A stretch of 64,000 nucleotides of DNA. Source: Escherichia coli (GTDB taxonomy: Bacteria > Pseudomonadota > Gammaproteobacteria > Enterobacterales > Enterobacteriaceae). Position numbers and translations under genes: made by a program. Shown piece by piece: positions 9,242-40,712 of the stretch (positions are counted from its first letter, which is position 1; each line of letters begins with the position of its first letter). The DNA is taken from the NCBI RefSeq assembly GCF_041248615.1, contig NZ_CP158426.1; one strand, 5' to 3'. Below the pieces are notes generated by a model. That model did no database searches and was not told the origin of the DNA. It saw only the letters and a list, made by a program, of their open reading frames with translations.

Positions 9242-9523
9242 TTATTCCGCTGGCGGCCATTGCAGAGCGGTATGTAAAACACGCAGTACCGAGAGCGTAT
9301 CGCCCTCCACTTGATAGACAAGCACATAATGCGGCCTGACAACGGCTTCATGTGTACCAGCGACTCGTCCGGCCCGGTACATCTCCGGGCGTTCACAGGC
9401 CTGTTCCGCAATGGCTTCAAATTGATTATCAAGGGCTATTGCCGCTAGCGGATTATCTTTACTGATGTATTCCATGATTTGCTCCCTGTCAGACAGGGAC
9501 ATTGGCTTCCATTCCAGACGCAT
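9242..9523 (-). CDS. ParE/RelE-family toxin-like protein
   Basis: 93 aa; ParE-like pattern (LEW.P......I..YI......AA...........P..G.......HE.VV.PY.LVY.V.GD.L.VLRVLH....WP); start ATG overlaps stop of upstream ORF (TAATG). Confidence 0.6.
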   Translation of the reverse strand: MRLEWKPMSLSDREQIMEYISKDNPLAAIALDNQFEAIAEQACERPEMYRAGRVAGTHEAVVRPHYVLVYQVEGDTLSVLRVLHTALQWPPAE

Positions 9524-9963
9524 TAATCCCCCTTCAGCAAGGCTTTTTTACGGGCAGCAAATAGACTTTTGGCCTCTTCATGAGAGAGTGCCGGGCGTGG
9601 ATCGTCAATGGCGGCCTGCACCTGCTCTCGAAACCAGGCATCATACGCGGCAGCTTCATGAGCTCGTTTTAATGCCTCAGCCCTGTCTGGTCGGGTCGTT
9701 TTCTTCTGACCGTCCGGGTCGTAATTAGAGGCGTCGACTTCAAACCGGGCAATACCAACATCTTTCAGGTAGTTGACAACCGTTTCCAGCCGTTTGAACA
9801 GGCGGATTTGCCGACTGCGTTGTGCTGCAAGAGGCCGTTCAGTGTGGCCGTATTTCACGGTCAACGACCAGCCTCCCTGGGTGCCAATAACGTGTGCTGC
9901 ATCCACTACGCCAGATTCAACCAGTTTATGTAAGGTTGAGTGATCGATCGTTTCTGGTGCCAT
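9523..9963 (-). CDS. putative antitoxin-like partner with extended N-terminal domain of unknown function
   Basis: 146 aa ORF with ATG start, translationally coupled to the toxin-like ORF; assignment by position only. Confidence 0.45.
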   Translation of the reverse strand: MAPETIDHSTLHKLVESGVVDAAHVIGTQGGWSLTVKYGHTERPLAAQRSRQIRLFKRLETVVNYLKDVGIARFEVDASNYDPDGQKKTTRPDRAEALKRAHEAAAYDAWFREQVQAAIDDPRPALSHEEAKSLFAARKKALLKGD

Positions 9964-20849: not shown

Positions 20850-21239
20850 CTAATGAAAAAAACGCGTATGCCTTTGCCAGACAAGCGTTATAGCTATCGC
20901 GGCAAGTATCCCAAAGAAGCCGATAAAATAGTAATAGAGTGTTAATGCACCTGTAAAAGCGCAACGAACCGGACTCCACAACTCTTCGCTATGGCATTTT
21001 CCTGCCAGTTCAAGGAGCTTATTTCGTCCATGCGAGATAATGCCTGACCATAACACAATCATTAAGCAACTTATTACCCAAACGGGTCGTTCACTCATTA
21101 ATGCGGCATCCATGATGATCACCAGGACCAGCTCTGCGGTTGTCACCAAACCCAAAGAGGTAATGAGCCATATGCCGTTTAATATCCTGGCCTCGTGCTG
21201 AAAATCTAATTTATTGCTGTTTTGCGAGTATGATTCCAT
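20850..21239 (-). CDS. ybhM: YbhM-like inner membrane protein, apparently short/truncated (129 aa)
   Basis: ORF 20850..21266 trimmed to MESYSQNSNK; hydrophobic; only about 4 predicted TM segments; reference ybhM is remembered as about 237 aa. Confidence 0.55.
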   Translation of the reverse strand: MESYSQNSNKLDFQHEARILNGIWLITSLGLVTTAELVLVIIMDAALMSERPVWVISCLMIVLWSGIISHGRNKLLELAGKCHSEELWSPVRCAFTGALTLYYYFIGFFGILAAIAITLVWQRHTRFFH

Positions 21240-33968: not shown

Positions 33969-34445
33969 ATGAAACTCATCAGTAATGATCTGCGCGATGG
34001 CGATAAGTTGCCGCATCGTCATGTCTTTAACGGCATGGGTTACGATGGCGATAATATTTCACCGCATCTGGCGTGGGATGATGTTCCTGCGGGAACGAAA
34101 AGTTTTGTTGTCACCTGCTTTGACCCGGACGCGCCAACCGGCTCCGGCTGGTGGCACTGGGTCGTTGTTAACTTACCCGCTGATACCCGCGTATTACCGC
34201 AAGGGTTTGGCTCTGGTCTGGTAGCAATGCCTGACGGCGTTTTGCAGACGCGTACCGACTTTGGTAAAGCCGGATACGGTGGCGCAGCGCCGCCGAAAGG
34301 CGAAACCCATCGCTACATTTTTACCGTTCACGCGCTGGATGTAGAACGTATTGATGTCGATGAAGGTGCCAGCGGCGCGATGGTCGGGTTTAACGTCCAT
34401 TTCCACTCTCTGGCAAGCGCCTCGATTACTGCGATGTTTAGTTAA
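33969..34445 (+). CDS. ybhB: PEBP/YbhB-family protein
   Basis: 158 aa; PEBP fold motifs; adjacent to bioA as in K-12. Confidence 0.9.
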   Translation: MKLISNDLRDGDKLPHRHVFNGMGYDGDNISPHLAWDDVPAGTKSFVVTCFDPDAPTGSGWWHWVVVNLPADTRVLPQGFGSGLVAMPDGVLQTRTDFGKAGYGGAAPPKGETHRYIFTVHALDVERIDVDEGASGAMVGFNVHFHSLASASITAMFS

Positions 34446-34535
34446 TCACTCTGCCAGATGGCGCTATGCCATCTGGTATCACTTAAAGGTATTAAAAACA
34501 ACTTTTTGTCTTTTTACCTTCCCGTTTCGCTCAAG

Positions 34536-34550
34536 TTAGTATAAAAAAGC
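34536..34550. other. lambda att core (O region) at prophage-chromosome junction (attR-type: P arm - core - B')
   Basis: ttagtataaaaaagc = reverse complement of the 15-bp lambda core GCTTTTTTATACTAA; the lower-coordinate flank matches chromosomal attB (..CTTGAGCGAAACGGGAAGG) and the higher-coordinate flank matches the lambda attP P-arm. Confidence 0.85.
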
Positions 34551-34700
34551 TGAACGAGAAACGTAAATGATATAAATATCAATATATTAAATTAGATTTT
34601 GCATAAAAAACAGACTACAAAATACTGTAAAACACAACATATGCAGTCACTATGAATCAACTACTTAGATGATATTAGTGACCTGTAACAGAGCATTAGC
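34551..34700. promoter_or_regulatory. lambda-like attP P-arm (Int arm-type/IHF/Xis/Fis site region)
   Basis: AT-rich sequence (..CGTTTCTCGTTCA next to the core, ..TGCAAAATCTAATTTAATATATTGATATTTATATCATTTACG.. as reverse complement) matching the lambda P arm from memory. Confidence 0.65.
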
Positions 34701-35227
34701 GCAAGGTGATTTTTTGTCCTCTTGCGCTAATTTTTTGTCAACTCACTGGGTTAGTTGAATTTACAACCATGCTCAGTATCTCGATAAGCGCAGGGAGATG
34801 ATGCAGTGGTGGGCGGACTGGCTTGATGAAAGTGTGCTGTAATCCTCATATCCAACCTAAGAGATATGCACAATTTTGTGAATAAGATATTGAGAATTAG
34901 CAAAAGTTTTATTTTGCGTATCATCAATTCAGAATACAAAGTCACATGCTAATGTTCTGCATTGGTATCTTTTGCTTATCCATGTCTACATTATCGCCAA
35001 AATAATAGGTTTTGCCTATCAATTATTTGAATTACTTCCATGAAATTATAACGCACTTGTAATTTTTGATTATTTTTACCTCTCAAGTGTTTTGTTTCTT
35101 CTATCTCTTTGTATTTTTAGCGAAAGTATGCCATATTGCATTCTAATATAACGTGGCGTTGTTTCTGTTTAATGATTTAAATAGTTCAACATAATATTTG
35201 CTAACAAATTATATCCAAGCAAATCAT

Positions 35228-36373
35228 ATGATATTATCATTACAATATATTAGAGGAATAGCATCATTACTTGTTGTTTTATTCCACTTCAGATTCTTGC
35301 TAAATGAGCACTACTCTCAGAAAGATTTGGGTGACCTATTATTTGGGAATGGGCTGTCTGGAGTTGATATATTCTTCATATTAAGTGGATTTATCATCGT
35401 ATACTCAACAAGAAAGAAGGAAGTTAATGATACTTTCTCATTCTCAATTAGAAGAATATTTAGAATATACCCATTACTAATCACATGCTGTTGCATGTAT
35501 TACATAATAAACACTCAATTTCTAACCTATGCTACAGTTGAAAACTTTAGAACCTTACTTATTTCCATCATTCCATTAAATATAAACTGGAATGAAGGCG
35601 CTCCATTCTTTGCCTATAATCTTTTGTACCCGGCCTGGACGATAACATATGAAATTGGTTTCTATGTTTTTTTCGGGGTATCAATGTCTATTTCGCATAA
35701 ATACAGAACAATTATCTGTTCTGTTTTTATAATCATGGTGGTCTCATTTACACAATACTATGTAAATGGAAATATATCATTTTCAGGTGATGTTAGTGCA
35801 GGGTTATTTACAGATAACTGGTTATTAGGATATACAAATGTTATTACATCTCCAATGATGTATGAATTCGTTATTGGGATGTTTCTTTCTGAAATATTTA
35901 CAAACATCAACGAAAGCAAAAGTATTAAAAGGATACTTTCAAAGTATTCGCTTCAAATACTATGGATTTCATGTGGTATATCCATAATATTATTCATTAT
36001 CCAGCGACCTTATGGGCATGGATTGAATGGATTTGGGACTATGGCGATGATACTTATTGCATCATCATTAGTATATGAATACTGCAATATAACACCCAAA
36101 ATAAAAATATTTAATTTCCTTGGTGAAATATCATATTCTTTATATCTAATTCACGCCGTGATACTTGCTTTGTTCTTCTATTATAAGGCAGACCTTGCTG
36201 AAATTGGCATAACTGGTGGATTTTCTGTGTTTTTTTCCTTGGTTATTATCTCAATAACTGCATCATATCCAATATATATTCTCATTGAAAAGCCAATGAT
36301 AAATATAGGTAAACGTTTAATTGACAAGAGAAATAAGAGCATTAACAAAAAAGAAACCGAAATAACAGCGTGA
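35228..36373 (+). CDS. acyltransferase family 3 membrane protein (O-antigen/OafA-type acetyltransferase-like)
   Basis: about 381 aa, 10+ TM; N-terminal YIRGIASLLVVLFH and FFILSGF motifs typical of acyltransferase_3; AT-rich; ORF 35198 (TTG) trimmed to ATG 35228. Confidence 0.75.
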   Translation: MILSLQYIRGIASLLVVLFHFRFLLNEHYSQKDLGDLLFGNGLSGVDIFFILSGFIIVYSTRKKEVNDTFSFSIRRIFRIYPLLITCCCMYYIINTQFLTYATVENFRTLLISIIPLNINWNEGAPFFAYNLLYPAWTITYEIGFYVFFGVSMSISHKYRTIICSVFIIMVVSFTQYYVNGNISFSGDVSAGLFTDNWLLGYTNVITSPMMYEFVIGMFLSEIFTNINESKSIKRILSKYSLQILWISCGISIILFIIQRPYGHGLNGFGTMAMILIASSLVYEYCNITPKIKIFNFLGEISYSLYLIHAVILALFFYYKADLAEIGITGGFSVFFSLVIISITASYPIYILIEKPMINIGKRLIDKRNKSINKKETEITA

Positions 36374-36410
36374 TAATGACAAAGTTAGTGCCGGGATACC
36401 CCGGCACTAT

Positions 36411-37748
36411 TTAATCTATTTCGTAAGTGACAGTGATTATCACTTCTGCATTATTACCCAAAACATTTTGATATATATTCATATTACCTGATAATGTAGT
36501 TGCTCCAGTAAGAGTTATATAACTACTATTTGCATCAACCCTTGGAAGTAAAGCGGTAACTGCTGTTGTTAAATTATTATAGTAGCCTGTACTTCCAACA
36601 TATGCAGCTTTATTGCTTGATACATATGGTAACCCTCCAATTCTGAAACCATCTCCTGACCCAATTAAAGTTATACCAAGGTGACATGTTGCCGTTATGA
36701 TATTGCCACTCCTGACATAATTTCCTTTCTGCTGATAATATGTGGCATTACCACCTACAGTCGGAATCCAAACTCCAGTTTCTATATCACCACATGACCA
36801 GTCTTCTGCTGTTGTTAGTTTTCCAGTAACAATAAATTTACTTCCACCACCAGAATTATAAGGAACAAAAATTGGATTTATTCTTGCATAAGTGTTACCG
36901 GTCTGCTCATTAAGATCATTTCTATCAATAAGAACTTGACCATTTTCGAAGTTTGAAATCTGGCAGTCTGTTACACTCCAGTCTCTTAACTTCACATCAG
37001 CATCCATGACACCAATAAGCTTACCAGCATTACCAATTTTTTCTTTATGCATATTTACATACACATTTCTTACCGTAACAGACTGAGGGAACAGATAATT
37101 AGCAGGATTAGTTTTATCACTTAAAACAGATATTACCCAAGGTCTGTATTGAGTACTTACTTCACAATAAAATCCATCAATAAGCGTTCCAGATGCCGCT
37201 GGCCCAAGTAGTATTCCACCTGTAGAGTGATGCGCACTACCTCCAATTACTCTCCCCTTAACGCAGTTAATATAGGCAAAACATCCTAAATCTTGATTGT
37301 CATAGGCTGACATAGCACAGTCTCTAACTGTTACTCGAGAATTTCCTCCGTCATAAGCTGAGCCATCAGTTTTCTTACCAACTATTGATATAAAGTTACC
37401 AATAGCAACTCGACTATAAAAAGTTTTTTTATAACACCCCTCAATTAAAATATCCCAGTTTTCAAACTGAGCATATATATCATAAATGCTGGCATTCCCA
37501 TAATCTATGAAATCACAATATCTTATTTTCGGCGTATAAACGGCACTTTTTATCTTTATACCACCTAATGCTCTCTCCCCACCTGTGAATCTAATGCCAG
37601 TAACGGTGTAATCGCCTTGATAGAAATTATCTGCGGTAGGATTATTTTCGTCAGAATCATCACCCAATATAATAGCAAATTCACTCCCTGAATAATTAAT
37701 TGTCGCCCCCTTATTTGAATATATAGTTACAGGTCTTATAAACTCCAA
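36411..37748 (-). CDS. beta-helix (pectate-lyase-like) protein, probable tailspike/tail-fibre distal fragment; no ATG start
   Basis: 445 aa, Asn/Gly/Ser/Thr-rich with repeated short beta-strand pattern; first codon in frame after the stop is TTG, with no ATG or N-terminal adaptor domain; AT-rich. Confidence 0.5.
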   Translation of the reverse strand: MEFIRPVTIYSNKGATINYSGSEFAIILGDDSDENNPTADNFYQGDYTVTGIRFTGGERALGGIKIKSAVYTPKIRYCDFIDYGNASIYDIYAQFENWDILIEGCYKKTFYSRVAIGNFISIVGKKTDGSAYDGGNSRVTVRDCAMSAYDNQDLGCFAYINCVKGRVIGGSAHHSTGGILLGPAASGTLIDGFYCEVSTQYRPWVISVLSDKTNPANYLFPQSVTVRNVYVNMHKEKIGNAGKLIGVMDADVKLRDWSVTDCQISNFENGQVLIDRNDLNEQTGNTYARINPIFVPYNSGGGSKFIVTGKLTTAEDWSCGDIETGVWIPTVGGNATYYQQKGNYVRSGNIITATCHLGITLIGSGDGFRIGGLPYVSSNKAAYVGSTGYYNNLTTAVTALLPRVDANSSYITLTGATTLSGNMNIYQNVLGNNAEVIITVTYEID

Positions 37749-38140
37749 AGAATTACTTATCAGATACTCTCCATAAGGAAAAAAATCTCAACTGGTGGTG
37801 AGTACTTTGGTCTGGAGTTTACGTAATTCATAATATTGATTACACCAACATCATAGATAATCGCCACCTTCTGGCGAGGAGCTCCTGATGCAATTAATCG
37901 CCAGGCCTACGCCCATTATTCATGGGTAAATTTTGGACGGAGCCCCCAATTCCATCCTCAATTCTCCCTCGCACTGAGGAGTAGTAAGTGCAATTATTTA
38001 AAAAATCGCAAACAGAATATTATCATTTATTCTTGCATTCTGTTAATTAAAACCACACATAAAAACGTTGATACTTGATAAGTAAGTAGAGTATTATTAA
38101 TGGTTTTAATAACGAACCTTTTAATCATGAGAAGCCTCAA

Positions 38141-39166
38141 ATGACTAGTACCAATAACATAACAAGAAAAAAAATGGATGGAGTAACAATCTTAAGATTT
38201 ATAGCTGCTTTTTATGTGTTTATTTTTCACATTAACATGAGAGTCCCCGTTAATTTTGGAGAGCTTATTAATAAAACCATTAGCAATGGCGTCATTGGCA
38301 TGAGTATTTTCTTCATGCTTTCTGGTTTTGTTTTGACTTATAATTACTATGGTTCCTTGTCAAACAATTACTTCAGGAAGCGAATAGCAAGAATATTTCC
38401 AGCCTATTTATTTTGTGGGCTTTTAACCCTCCCATTTTTGTTATCCAGCGATGCAAGCTTTTTAAAAATGATTGCAAGCATATTCTTGTTTGTTACTGGA
38501 ATGCAATCATGGATTTATCAGACCTTCGATTTTTGGAATTTTAGCGGTACCTGGTCAATATCAGTGGAATTGTTTTTTTATGCCCTGTTTCCATTTTTGA
38601 TAAAAAACATCAACAAAAACAATGTAATTTATGTTTTACTTTTTTCATATTTATCTTCAGCATTATTAATCCCATTATCTGATATAATTCAGGGACCTGT
38701 AGTTTGGTCCGTATATTACGCAACTCCAATATACAGGTTACCAGAATTTGTGGTGGGCGTCTGTATCGCAATACTTTTTTTAAATGGCTATCGTGTTAAC
38801 CATTATACATGGCTATTAAGCATTTTATTATTTCTGTATGCTACCACCCAGCAAAACAATAACTCCATGGGGGTGAACTATCTCACAATTCCTGCGATAT
38901 CAATTATGTTATTGCACCTGGCAAAAATCAACATCAAAAACAACATTGCAAACAGAGCGATCATTTACTTTGGAGATATAAGTTATTCGTTTTATTTGAT
39001 GCAATTACCTATATTATATTACCTGGATCATAATAAAAACTCATTTATTCTTAACTATGGTCTTTTTAGCTGGCTTGTACTTTTTGTTATTAATACTGCA
39101 ATGGCATCATTATCTTATCACTTTCTGGAGAAGAACGATAAAATCAGAAAAATAATTACATCCTGA
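38141..39166 (+). CDS. acyltransferase family 3 membrane protein (O-antigen acetyltransferase Oac-like)
   Basis: 341 aa, multi-TM; ILRFIAAFYVFIFH and FFMLSGFVLTYN motifs; ATG start; very AT-rich. Confidence 0.78.
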   Translation: MTSTNNITRKKMDGVTILRFIAAFYVFIFHINMRVPVNFGELINKTISNGVIGMSIFFMLSGFVLTYNYYGSLSNNYFRKRIARIFPAYLFCGLLTLPFLLSSDASFLKMIASIFLFVTGMQSWIYQTFDFWNFSGTWSISVELFFYALFPFLIKNINKNNVIYVLLFSYLSSALLIPLSDIIQGPVVWSVYYATPIYRLPEFVVGVCIAILFLNGYRVNHYTWLLSILLFLYATTQQNNNSMGVNYLTIPAISIMLLHLAKINIKNNIANRAIIYFGDISYSFYLMQLPILYYLDHNKNSFILNYGLFSWLVLFVINTAMASLSYHFLEKNDKIRKIITS

Positions 39167-39170
39167 TTTA

Positions 39171-39190
39171 TTAGGGGGGTACCCCCCTAA
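39171..39190. terminator. bidirectional hairpin terminator between acyltransferase and tail-fibre assembly gene
   Basis: perfect palindrome ttaggggggtacccccctaa flanked by T/A runs, between convergent stops (39166 and 39208). Confidence 0.65.
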
Positions 39191-39207
39191 TAATACACCA
39201 CATAATT

Positions 39208-39603
39208 TCAACGTATTATCTCTGGCCTTTCTGGCCAGGTTATTTCTGGAATTAAGGACAAATCCACTGACATTAAATTATTAACATATTCCTTCCATAA
39301 CAAAAGATTGTTCTTGTTATTTTCACTTATAATACCGAGTAACAAATCTGACTGCCAGTTCATAATTAAACCATTAGCACTATCCAGCAGACACTGTCTT
39401 TCATTCTCTGCCTCACGAAGTAATTCATCATGTGTTTTTGGCGGCTGCGTAGGTGACGAAAGCTTTCCCTTATCATAGAACCAACCAATTCTTACATTAT
39501 CGGATACAGGTATAACTAACGCATTAGTTGGTTGCCAGGCACTCTCACCATCCCATACCGCAATATTGGTAACAACACCATTTTCTATAACGGCATAGTT
39601 CAT
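39208..39603 (-). CDS. tail fibre assembly protein (Tfa-like chaperone)
   Basis: ORF 39208..39618 trimmed to MNYAVIENGVVTNIAVWDG.. (typical Tfa N-terminus); ATG overlaps tail-fibre stop. Confidence 0.8.
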   Translation of the reverse strand: MNYAVIENGVVTNIAVWDGESAWQPTNALVIPVSDNVRIGWFYDKGKLSSPTQPPKTHDELLREAENERQCLLDSANGLIMNWQSDLLLGIISENNKNNLLLWKEYVNNLMSVDLSLIPEITWPERPEIIR

Positions 39604-40712
39604 CACGCATACTCCCAAATGATTGCAATACCAGCCATTCCGCTACCTCCGGCACGCTGCTGCGTCGCTCCACCGTAGACACAGGCACCACCGCCTCCAC
39701 CACCATGGCCATTAGCATTAATACCTTCGCCTACAATGGCTTGTGACCCAGCCCCCGCACCAAGGATTGAATCGCCGCCAGGCCCCCCCATCGCCAGACT
39801 GCCGGAATACCGAACGCCTGGTGAGCTATAACCGCTTCCAGACCCGATAATATTTGCACCTGTAAATCCCGGCTCAGTATATGCTCCATACGGACCAACA
39901 ACCCCTGGAGCAGTTCCTTCAGCAAGAACATCCCCACCAAGGCCACCTTTGGCAATTATGGTATTGCCGAAAGAGGTTGTTCCCCCGGGAGCACCAACCG
40001 ACGCACTTGCACCAGTGCCACCATATCCGATTGTCACAGTAGTTACGGTTGGATTATCCACGCGAGCTTTAACATACTCCCCGGACATCCCCCCGCCACC
40101 ACAAGCAGCATTATTGGGATAACCGACCTGACAACCACCACCGGCCCCACCACCACCAACAATTTCAACAATAATAAATTTTGTGCCTTTTGTCGGAGTG
40201 TATGTACCTGAGCTTTTAAACACCTGACACTGTATAAGCCTCCCGGAGCCATCTCCCAAACCAAGGTATGCGAGAATGTCATCAATAGTATTTTTGCCGA
40301 TAATATCACGGCCTACCTTAGTGAGGTCGGTCTGCGCAGCCTTATCTGTGCCAGTGAAATACGGTAGCTTATTTGCACCTGTCGCCAGTCCGGCCAGAGC
40401 CGTCAACGTGGCATCAAGCGCCTGATAATCCTTACCGAATGCAGAAGACATTTTGGTAATGAATCCATTCAGGTCGCCATCATCCAATACATCCAGTCCG
40501 CTTTTGTTTGCTGTGTACTGTGCAAGTGCTGCAGCAATAAAGCTGGCCTGCCGAATAACCTTATTGACTTGCGCACTGGAGGCTTTCCCTGCTGTAAATC
40601 CGGATAAAAGCGCGGGCAACGCTTCCCATTCCTCCTGCGATATAACATTGGCATTTCGATCCGTTGCAAACGCTTTAAAGTCATTTTTCGCCATCAGAGT
40701 AATACTCCCCAT
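39603..40712 (-). CDS. tail fibre protein (Mu S/P2 H-like N-terminus, Gly-rich C-terminal domain)
   Basis: 369 aa; conserved N-terminal MAKNDFKAF..SQEEWEALP..; C-terminal glycine-rich repeats. Confidence 0.8.
   Translation of the reverse strand: MGSITLMAKNDFKAFATDRNANVISQEEWEALPALLSGFTAGKASSAQVNKVIRQASFIAAALAQYTANKSGLDVLDDGDLNGFITKMSSAFGKDYQALDATLTALAGLATGANKLPYFTGTDKAAQTDLTKVGRDIIGKNTIDDILAYLGLGDGSGRLIQCQVFKSSGTYTPTKGTKFIIVEIVGGGGAGGGCQVGYPNNAACGGGGMSGEYVKARVDNPTVTTVTIGYGGTGASASVGAPGGTTSFGNTIIAKGGLGGDVLAEGTAPGVVGPYGAYTEPGFTGANIIGSGSGYSSPGVRYSGSLAMGGPGGDSILGAGAGSQAIVGEGINANGHGGGGGGACVYGGATQQRAGGSGMAGIAIIWEYA

Follow-up and report, generated by a model that had tools for sequence, protein, structure and literature searches.

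The region at 34521-34700 of the 64,000-nucleotide stretch of Escherichia coli DNA analysed here (the window) is almost certainly the attR (P-O-B') of a single prophage of ~42.3 kb, which was put by a lambda Int/Xis module into att-lambda between ybhC and ybhB. A lambda-type attR at the classic E. coli integration site is a textbook arrangement that is already known, and its biology restates the best-understood site-specific recombination system. For annotation, its use is that one prophage boundary is fixed to the base pair, such that the DNA from 34536 onward is assigned to phage and ybhB/bio to the host. Moreover, the element is apparently related to the defective lambdaB prophage of E. coli B/BL21 but of full length, and it carries a unique P-arm spacing change, a natural variant with which the phasing that the lambda intasome requires could be examined.

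The junction is centred on the 15-bp lambda core GCTTTTTTATACTAA, which lies on the minus strand at 34536-34550, where the first-pass annotation had placed it; no other site of the 64-kb window comes within two mismatches of it (chance expectation 0.09). Positions 1-34535 are ordinary chromosome (mcbA, fiu ... uvrB, bioDCFB ... bioA, ybhB), of which the last bases on the plus strand, 34521-34535 (cccgtttcgctcaag), are the reverse complement of the K-12 B' arm CTTGAGCGAAACGGG. With lambda NC_001416 and K-12 NC_000913 as references, the sequence from -14 to +20 around the core is fully identical to lambda on the C side and to K-12 on the B' side, and both core-type sites, C and B', are present. 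The elements of this central part are as follows.

34521-34535, minus strand: B' arm of attB on the host side; identical to K-12 MG1655 to the right of the core and running into the ybhB 3' flank
34532-34540: B' core-type Int site, caagttagt as read on the plus strand
34536-34550, minus strand: common core O (GCTTTTTTATACTAA, 15 bp); exact, unique in the window, and including the 7-bp overlap region for strand exchange
34545-34553, minus strand: C core-type Int site CAGCTTTTT (minus-strand reading), assigned from established lambda att knowledge; identical to lambda

Read along the minus strand, the P arm is followed by the core, B', ybhB and bioA, and it is this P-O-B' order that makes the junction an attR, in agreement with the name and orientation given to it before. 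Precisely at the junction, the GC content drops from ~54% to ~30-35%.

On the other flank, which had been recognized as the lambda attP P arm, homology to lambda runs for ~190 bp from the core out to ~34741 at roughly 98% identity, with 34551 to ~34741 aligning with the P arm and the tI hairpin. The junction had been described as exact; this is true for the core and B', but not for the P arm, which differs from lambda by two substitutions and one 1-bp deletion. G is replaced by A at 34672 (plus-strand numbering), in the interval that separates P1 from H1; T is replaced by A at 34620, which is base two of the Xis site X1; and the run at 34565-34567 is one base short (aaa here, aaaa in lambda). 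The end of the junction segment had likewise been set too early, at 34700, as lambda homology extends ~40 bp further and takes in the whole tI/sib hairpin. From the core outward, the phage side consists of the following elements.

34565-34567, minus strand: T3 run (T4 in lambda and all comparators); one base is deleted here from the stretch that separates the H2 consensus from the core, a change private to this lineage
34577-34589, plus strand: IHF site H2 consensus; TATCAATATATTA fits WATCAANNNNTTR and is identical to lambda
34593-34621, minus strand: Xis sites X2, X1.5 and X1 with the overlapping Fis site F, placed by alignment; the exact 13-bp boundaries of the X sites are taken from the literature
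34644-34653, plus strand: arm-type Int site P2 (cagtcactat; CAGTCACTAT), inside the 'int 2' binding feature of the lambda record
34655-34667, plus strand: IHF site H1 consensus aatcaactactta, identical to lambda
34674-34684, minus strand: arm-type Int site P1 AGGTCACTAAT, inside the 'int 1' feature of the lambda record
34695-34736, plus strand: tI terminator/sib hairpin, with an 11-12-bp stem and a T6 run after it; no further element beyond it is homologous to lambda, and homology ends at ~34741

An alignment of seven P arms (lambda, the window, REL606, phage 434, an O157:H7 prophage, strain D7 and the 720R6 record) reveals how strongly these sites are conserved. The core, P1, P2 and the ATTGAT core of H2 are invariant in all seven, the bases flanking the latter vary in 434-type P arms, and the H1 consensus is departed from once, by a substitution in strain D7. 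At X2/F and X1.5 the window has the lambda sequence, while X1 carries the substitution at 34620, which is common to REL606 (E. coli B) and falls at a position conserved in other P-arm families. In the X/F region and the H2-to-core spacer the sequences form two families, lambda-like versus 434/O157-like, and the window is lambda-like. The roles of X1, X1.5, X2 and F are described in PMC7145599 and PMC4880445, and the H2 bend has a role in excision (PMC4880445).

The hairpin at 34695-34736 lies directly beyond P1, aligns with lambda, 434 and all other lambda-att phages that were aligned, and is predicted to fold as RNA at -32.7 kcal/mol (z = -3.96); from established lambda knowledge, we take it to be tI/sib, and in the phage 434 record a terminator is annotated at the equivalent place. 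A simple terminator scan did not pick up the tI hairpin because of the loop and stem rules of the scan, and an Rfam scan of 34000-36000 returned nothing relevant, with one sub-threshold chance match. In the prophage, the hairpin points from ybhB into the phage and is detached from int. In lambda, splitting tI/sib from int in the prophage state relieves the retroregulation of int.

As attL and int fall outside the window, a chance or relic att-like sequence without a prophage, or a mislabelled secondary-site or attL-type junction, might be suspected, but the probability of such a reading is negligible. A chance match was rejected on the unique core and on the adjoining arm, which is ~98% lambda over ~190 bp including tI, and 29.5 kb of contiguous phage genes follow the junction. 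An attL instead of an attR was rejected on the core-adjacent arm, which is P (with P1, H1, P2, X and H2) and not P', and on the host flank, which is B' and not B.

Since attL and int are beyond the window, both were deduced from a near-identical record. E. coli NRZ14408 (NZ_LT599825.1, 3555669-3619667) matches the full length of the window at 99.98% identity; exact identity of the two was ruled out, as a gapped alignment leaves differences at 10 of the 64,000 positions, made up of nine substitutions and one indel (an ungapped comparison gives 154 mismatches). In that record, a second exact core (attL) is found 42,346 bp from the first, and beside it are xis, int and ybhC. The DNA past the window end encodes, in order, the nin region, P, O, cII, cro and a LexA-family protein at the cI position, and then early-left genes including cIII and kil, followed by xis, int, the second core and ybhC. 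The Int of this record is identical to lambda Int at 353 of 356 residues and its Xis to lambda Xis at 71 of 72, and there is no difference from lambda in the P' arm or at the 3' end of int (100% identity). When the host-side flanks of both junctions are joined, an empty attB is obtained that equals K-12 at 254 of 255 positions, bearing out the attB assignment of the ybhB-side flank; joining of the phage-side flanks gives the lambda attP, equal from -185 to +200 except for the three small P-arm changes. Two checks proposed in the first-pass annotation, alignment with lambda attP and E. coli attB and a search for attL/int, thus gave matching results, the latter in the proxy record and not in the window itself. 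Its prediction of a lambda-type int and an attL beyond the window on the gal side agrees with the finding of both ~10 kb past the window end, adjoining ybhC.

All 10 differences between the window and NZ_LT599825.1 are within 61920-63980 (tRNA to nin region), the remaining 62 kb being identical. This clustering suggests either an exchange with another lambdoid prophage or a repeated region that was assembled or polished differently in the two records.

The same record bears on the number of elements at the site. If two elements lay in tandem at att-lambda, this attR would belong to an element other than the one whose int is near ybhC. Tandem occupancy of the site is documented in B strains, such as BL21(DE3) with DE3 beside lambdaB, and the prophage is visibly mosaic. 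Nevertheless, tandem prophages were rejected, and are very improbable, on two grounds: just two core copies exist in the 50 kb spanning the locus, with no further core-like site at up to one mismatch, and the 42.3-kb interval between them holds one regulatory, replication, lysis, head and tail set and no internal hybrid att. A single prophage between attL and attR is therefore the reading adopted here.

In the window, 29.5 kb of the ~42.3 kb is present.

34536-64000, strand not assigned: prophage DNA, based on the proxy annotation, the GC step and matches to phage records

Its gene content comprises a low-GC cargo island, a tail fibre, baseplate, sheath and tube, head, terminase and lysis genes, two tRNAs, Q and the nin region. 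Phage genes thus continue to the window end from the GC step at the junction, as expected from the earlier statement that everything above 34536 is prophage. The overall order of the prophage, int-xis, early genes, Q, lysis, head, tail, attR and bio, is collinear with that of a lambda lysogen, and the tail end does adjoin bio as had been proposed, yet the tail genes are of the contractile type and not those of lambda.

For lambda itself, it has been established that in integration Int bridges P1 and three P' arm-type sites to core-type sites, while IHF bends the DNA at H1, H2 and H' (PMC4880445, PMC7145599). By the same scheme, Int, a heterobivalent tyrosine recombinase, together with IHF would have recombined attP (POP') with attB (BOB') inside the 15-bp core, yielding BOP' (attL) by int on the gal side and POB' (attR) by the tail/cargo end on the bio side. 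Upon induction, the P arm of attR would become the assembly platform for excision: IHF would bend the arm at H2, and a further bend would come from three Xis protomers on X1, X1.5 and X2, brought in by Fis on the F site that overlaps them, such that P2-bound Int could simultaneously occupy the B' core site. The attR complex so formed would synapse with attL, and two ordered pairs of strand exchanges over the 7-bp overlap would restore attP and attB; P1 and H1 would serve in integration only. The H2 bend, the Xis/Fis bends, synapsis and the ordered strand exchanges are established for lambda excision (PMC4880445, PMC7145599). At the level of sequence, all att sites are shown to be present in the right order, together with the cognate Int and Xis, and attP and attB can be reconstructed; activity of this attR in excision is what we infer from these features, with an efficiency that the 1-bp deletion in the H2-to-core spacer may lower.

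This deletion is the one unexpected detail of the junction. Distances from P1, H1, P2, X1 and H2 to the core are 134, 111, 103, 66 and 33 in the window, versus 135, 112, 104, 67 and 34 wherever the motif was found in 11 comparators, nine of which have all five landmarks (a Salmonella phage and Stx2_14040 are without some motifs). The H1 and H2 consensus sequences equal those of lambda, and the H2-to-core distance is 33 here against an otherwise invariant 34 in the 11 comparators; with the deletion, all of the P arm lies one base pair closer to the core. When a 90-mer with the deletion was searched in 5426 complete E. coli genomes, it was found exactly only in NZ_LT599825.1, with 201 others 95-99% identical, from which the deletion is considered private to this lineage. 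REL606 shares both P-arm substitutions but not the deletion, its lambdaB having kept the T4 run and normal spacing where the window has T3. By analogy with H', the shortened T/A run would be the A-tract half of the H2 IHF site.

Because a spacing that is invariant in 11 comparators is broken, and the variant is private, competence of the element for excision and re-integration is uncertain. The deletion may impair recombination, or it may be an assembly error in a homopolymer. In the work of Goodman & Nash 1989 and of Snyder, Thompson & Landy 1989, lambda recombination reportedly depends on the phasing of the H2 bend; a literature search on the effect of a 1-bp spacing change at H2 found no usable open paper. 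It has accordingly to be considered that the attR is genuine while the prophage no longer excises efficiently, being anchored and partly domesticated, with the deletion mis-phasing the H2 bend and/or the X1 substitution weakening Xis loading. Such anchoring would fit with the one-base shortening of landmark distances on which the 11 comparators agree despite up to ~20-30% local divergence, with the absence of the spacing variant from the rest of the 5426 complete genomes, with the frameshifted ren and Ser/Thr phosphatase genes in the proxy annotation, with the E. coli B relative being a clearly defective 12-kb remnant, and with the reported phasing dependence. However, it is unlikely overall, as every protein-binding motif is intact, Int and Xis are essentially wild-type, a full structural, lysis and regulatory gene set is present, and a one-base shift may be tolerated, if the shift is not a homopolymer assembly error in the first place. 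The ren and Ser/Thr phosphatase genes, moreover, are dispensable in lambda. The spacing change and the X1 substitution are the sole grounds for doubting that the attR functions, and significant impairment of it is likewise unlikely. A more specific proposal, that the deletion is real, rotates the P arm by ~34 degrees versus the core and measurably impairs excision by Int/Xis/IHF, making this otherwise complete element a natural and very recent case of prophage anchoring by an att-site spacing mutation and not by gene loss, is somewhat less probable still.

Several known systems come close to this attR. A lambda lysogen (NC_001416) has the same 15-bp core and B' flank at the same ybhC/ybhB site next to bio, the same order of sites (C, H2, F/X2, X1.5, X1, P2, H1, P1, tI/sib), Int and Xis that are both 99% identical, and a collinear prophage gene order. 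It differs from the element here in that the P arm of the latter has two substitutions and a 1-bp deletion and its homology to lambda stops just past tI, in that the b-region is replaced by a low-GC island with two O-acetyltransferases and a tailspike-like ORF, and in that the virion genes are of a contractile-tail (SEN34-like) type instead of lambda's siphovirus type.

Another is lambdaB, a defective 12.1-kb prophage that occupies attB in the E. coli B lineage (PMC4395058). Carried by E. coli B, REL606 and BL21, lambdaB is a deleted, 12-kb relative of the element here, and its attR has both P-arm substitutions and the same flanks. Protein accessions are identical for Int, Xis, the first acyltransferase, a tail-fibre assembly protein, the terminase small subunit and an adjacent 540-aa protein. 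Most of the genes for head, tail, lysis and early functions have been lost from lambdaB, whereas the present element, at 42.3 kb, is full length. In the REL606 attR (~20690 of the compared stretch), the first B' base is T and not C, giving TTTGAGCG versus CTTGAGCG in K-12 and the window.

Other lambda-att phages (434, HK97, HK106, Huey, ev099, JEP4 and a CP-933K-type O157:H7 prophage) have the same core, P1, H1, P2 and landmark spacings, and nearly identical Int and Xis (98-99% DNA identity), but their P arms form the second family, diverging between P2 and the core (84-90% identity), and their attR-side cargo is different, for example NleC/NleD/NleH effectors or a P22-like tailspike. At the level of the species, an attR-type junction is found at this site in 1921 of 5426 complete E. 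coli genomes (~35%), as counted with a 280-bp probe (B', core and P arm) covered by at least 80% in one piece; among the matches listed, most of the remaining genomes matched the first 80 probe bases only (B' and core). This cargo island accompanies the junction in 49 genomes.

vB_EcoM-611R5 and related 'phage' records were considered as proof of inducible relatives and set aside, as they contain host genes: the attR lies within the 720R6 record, which runs on into ybhB, bioA and bioB, and the end of 611R5 consists of host-like genes. The GenBank vB_Eco*-6xxR/7xxR records (ON470605.1, ON470588.1) appear to be in-silico prophage extractions that overrun into the host, and they should not be read as proof of viable phages.

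The prophage is a mosaic composed of lambda int/xis/att, lambdoid early, nin and Q genes, a SEN34-like contractile-tail module and a low-GC island by attR. Its int/xis/att module shares 98.9% DNA identity with lambda. The structural module encodes baseplate J/gp47, DUF2612, DUF3383, DUF3277, DUF2184 and DUF1073 proteins; its identity is 97.5% with vB_EcoM-611R5 and 81.6% with Salmonella phage SEN34. The virion genes are of the contractile-tail type and do not correspond to the head and non-contractile tail genes A to J of lambda; the element shares int/att and early-gene modules with lambda but is not lambda.

The low-GC island (~34750-39200, GC 30-38%) lies between attR and the tail-fibre genes and contains three genes of interest.

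35228-36373, plus strand: Acyl_transf_3 O-acetyltransferase 1, with the same protein accession as the E. coli B copy
36411-37748, minus strand: 445-aa cargo ORF with a TTG start and no obvious N-terminal adaptor
38141-39166, plus strand: Acyl_transf_3 O-acetyltransferase 2

The two O-acetyltransferases are likely O-antigen-modifying lysogenic-conversion genes. No match to the 445-aa ORF was found in Pfam, PHROGs, PADLOC, NCBIfam or the sequences of the PDB; a tblastn search against phages aligned it in full with the St11Ph5 (podovirus) tailspike at 56% identity. Because of the TTG start and the lack of an obvious N-terminal adaptor, this tailspike-like ORF may be an orphan or remnant receptor-binding or enzymatic domain.

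Several minor observations concern the remainder of the window. On the minus strand at 39603-40712 there is a continuous 369-aa tail-fibre ORF, which the RefSeq proxy splits into a 282-aa 'glycine-rich' CDS and a partial pseudogene; its homology to 611R5 begins only at the N-terminal end (~40517), as is typical of tail-fibre mosaicism. Phage tRNAs Thr(TGT) and Asn(GTT) are located at 61842-61997 (minus strand) between the Q antiterminator and holin genes. On the host side, a 390-bp 'hypothetical protein' gene at 20850-21239 (minus strand) stands where REL606 has a 714-bp ybhM and may be a truncated or replaced ybhM, and, according to the proxy annotation, a RelE/ParE-family toxin and a PaaA2-family antitoxin are encoded at 9242-9963 (minus strand) between dinG and rhlE.
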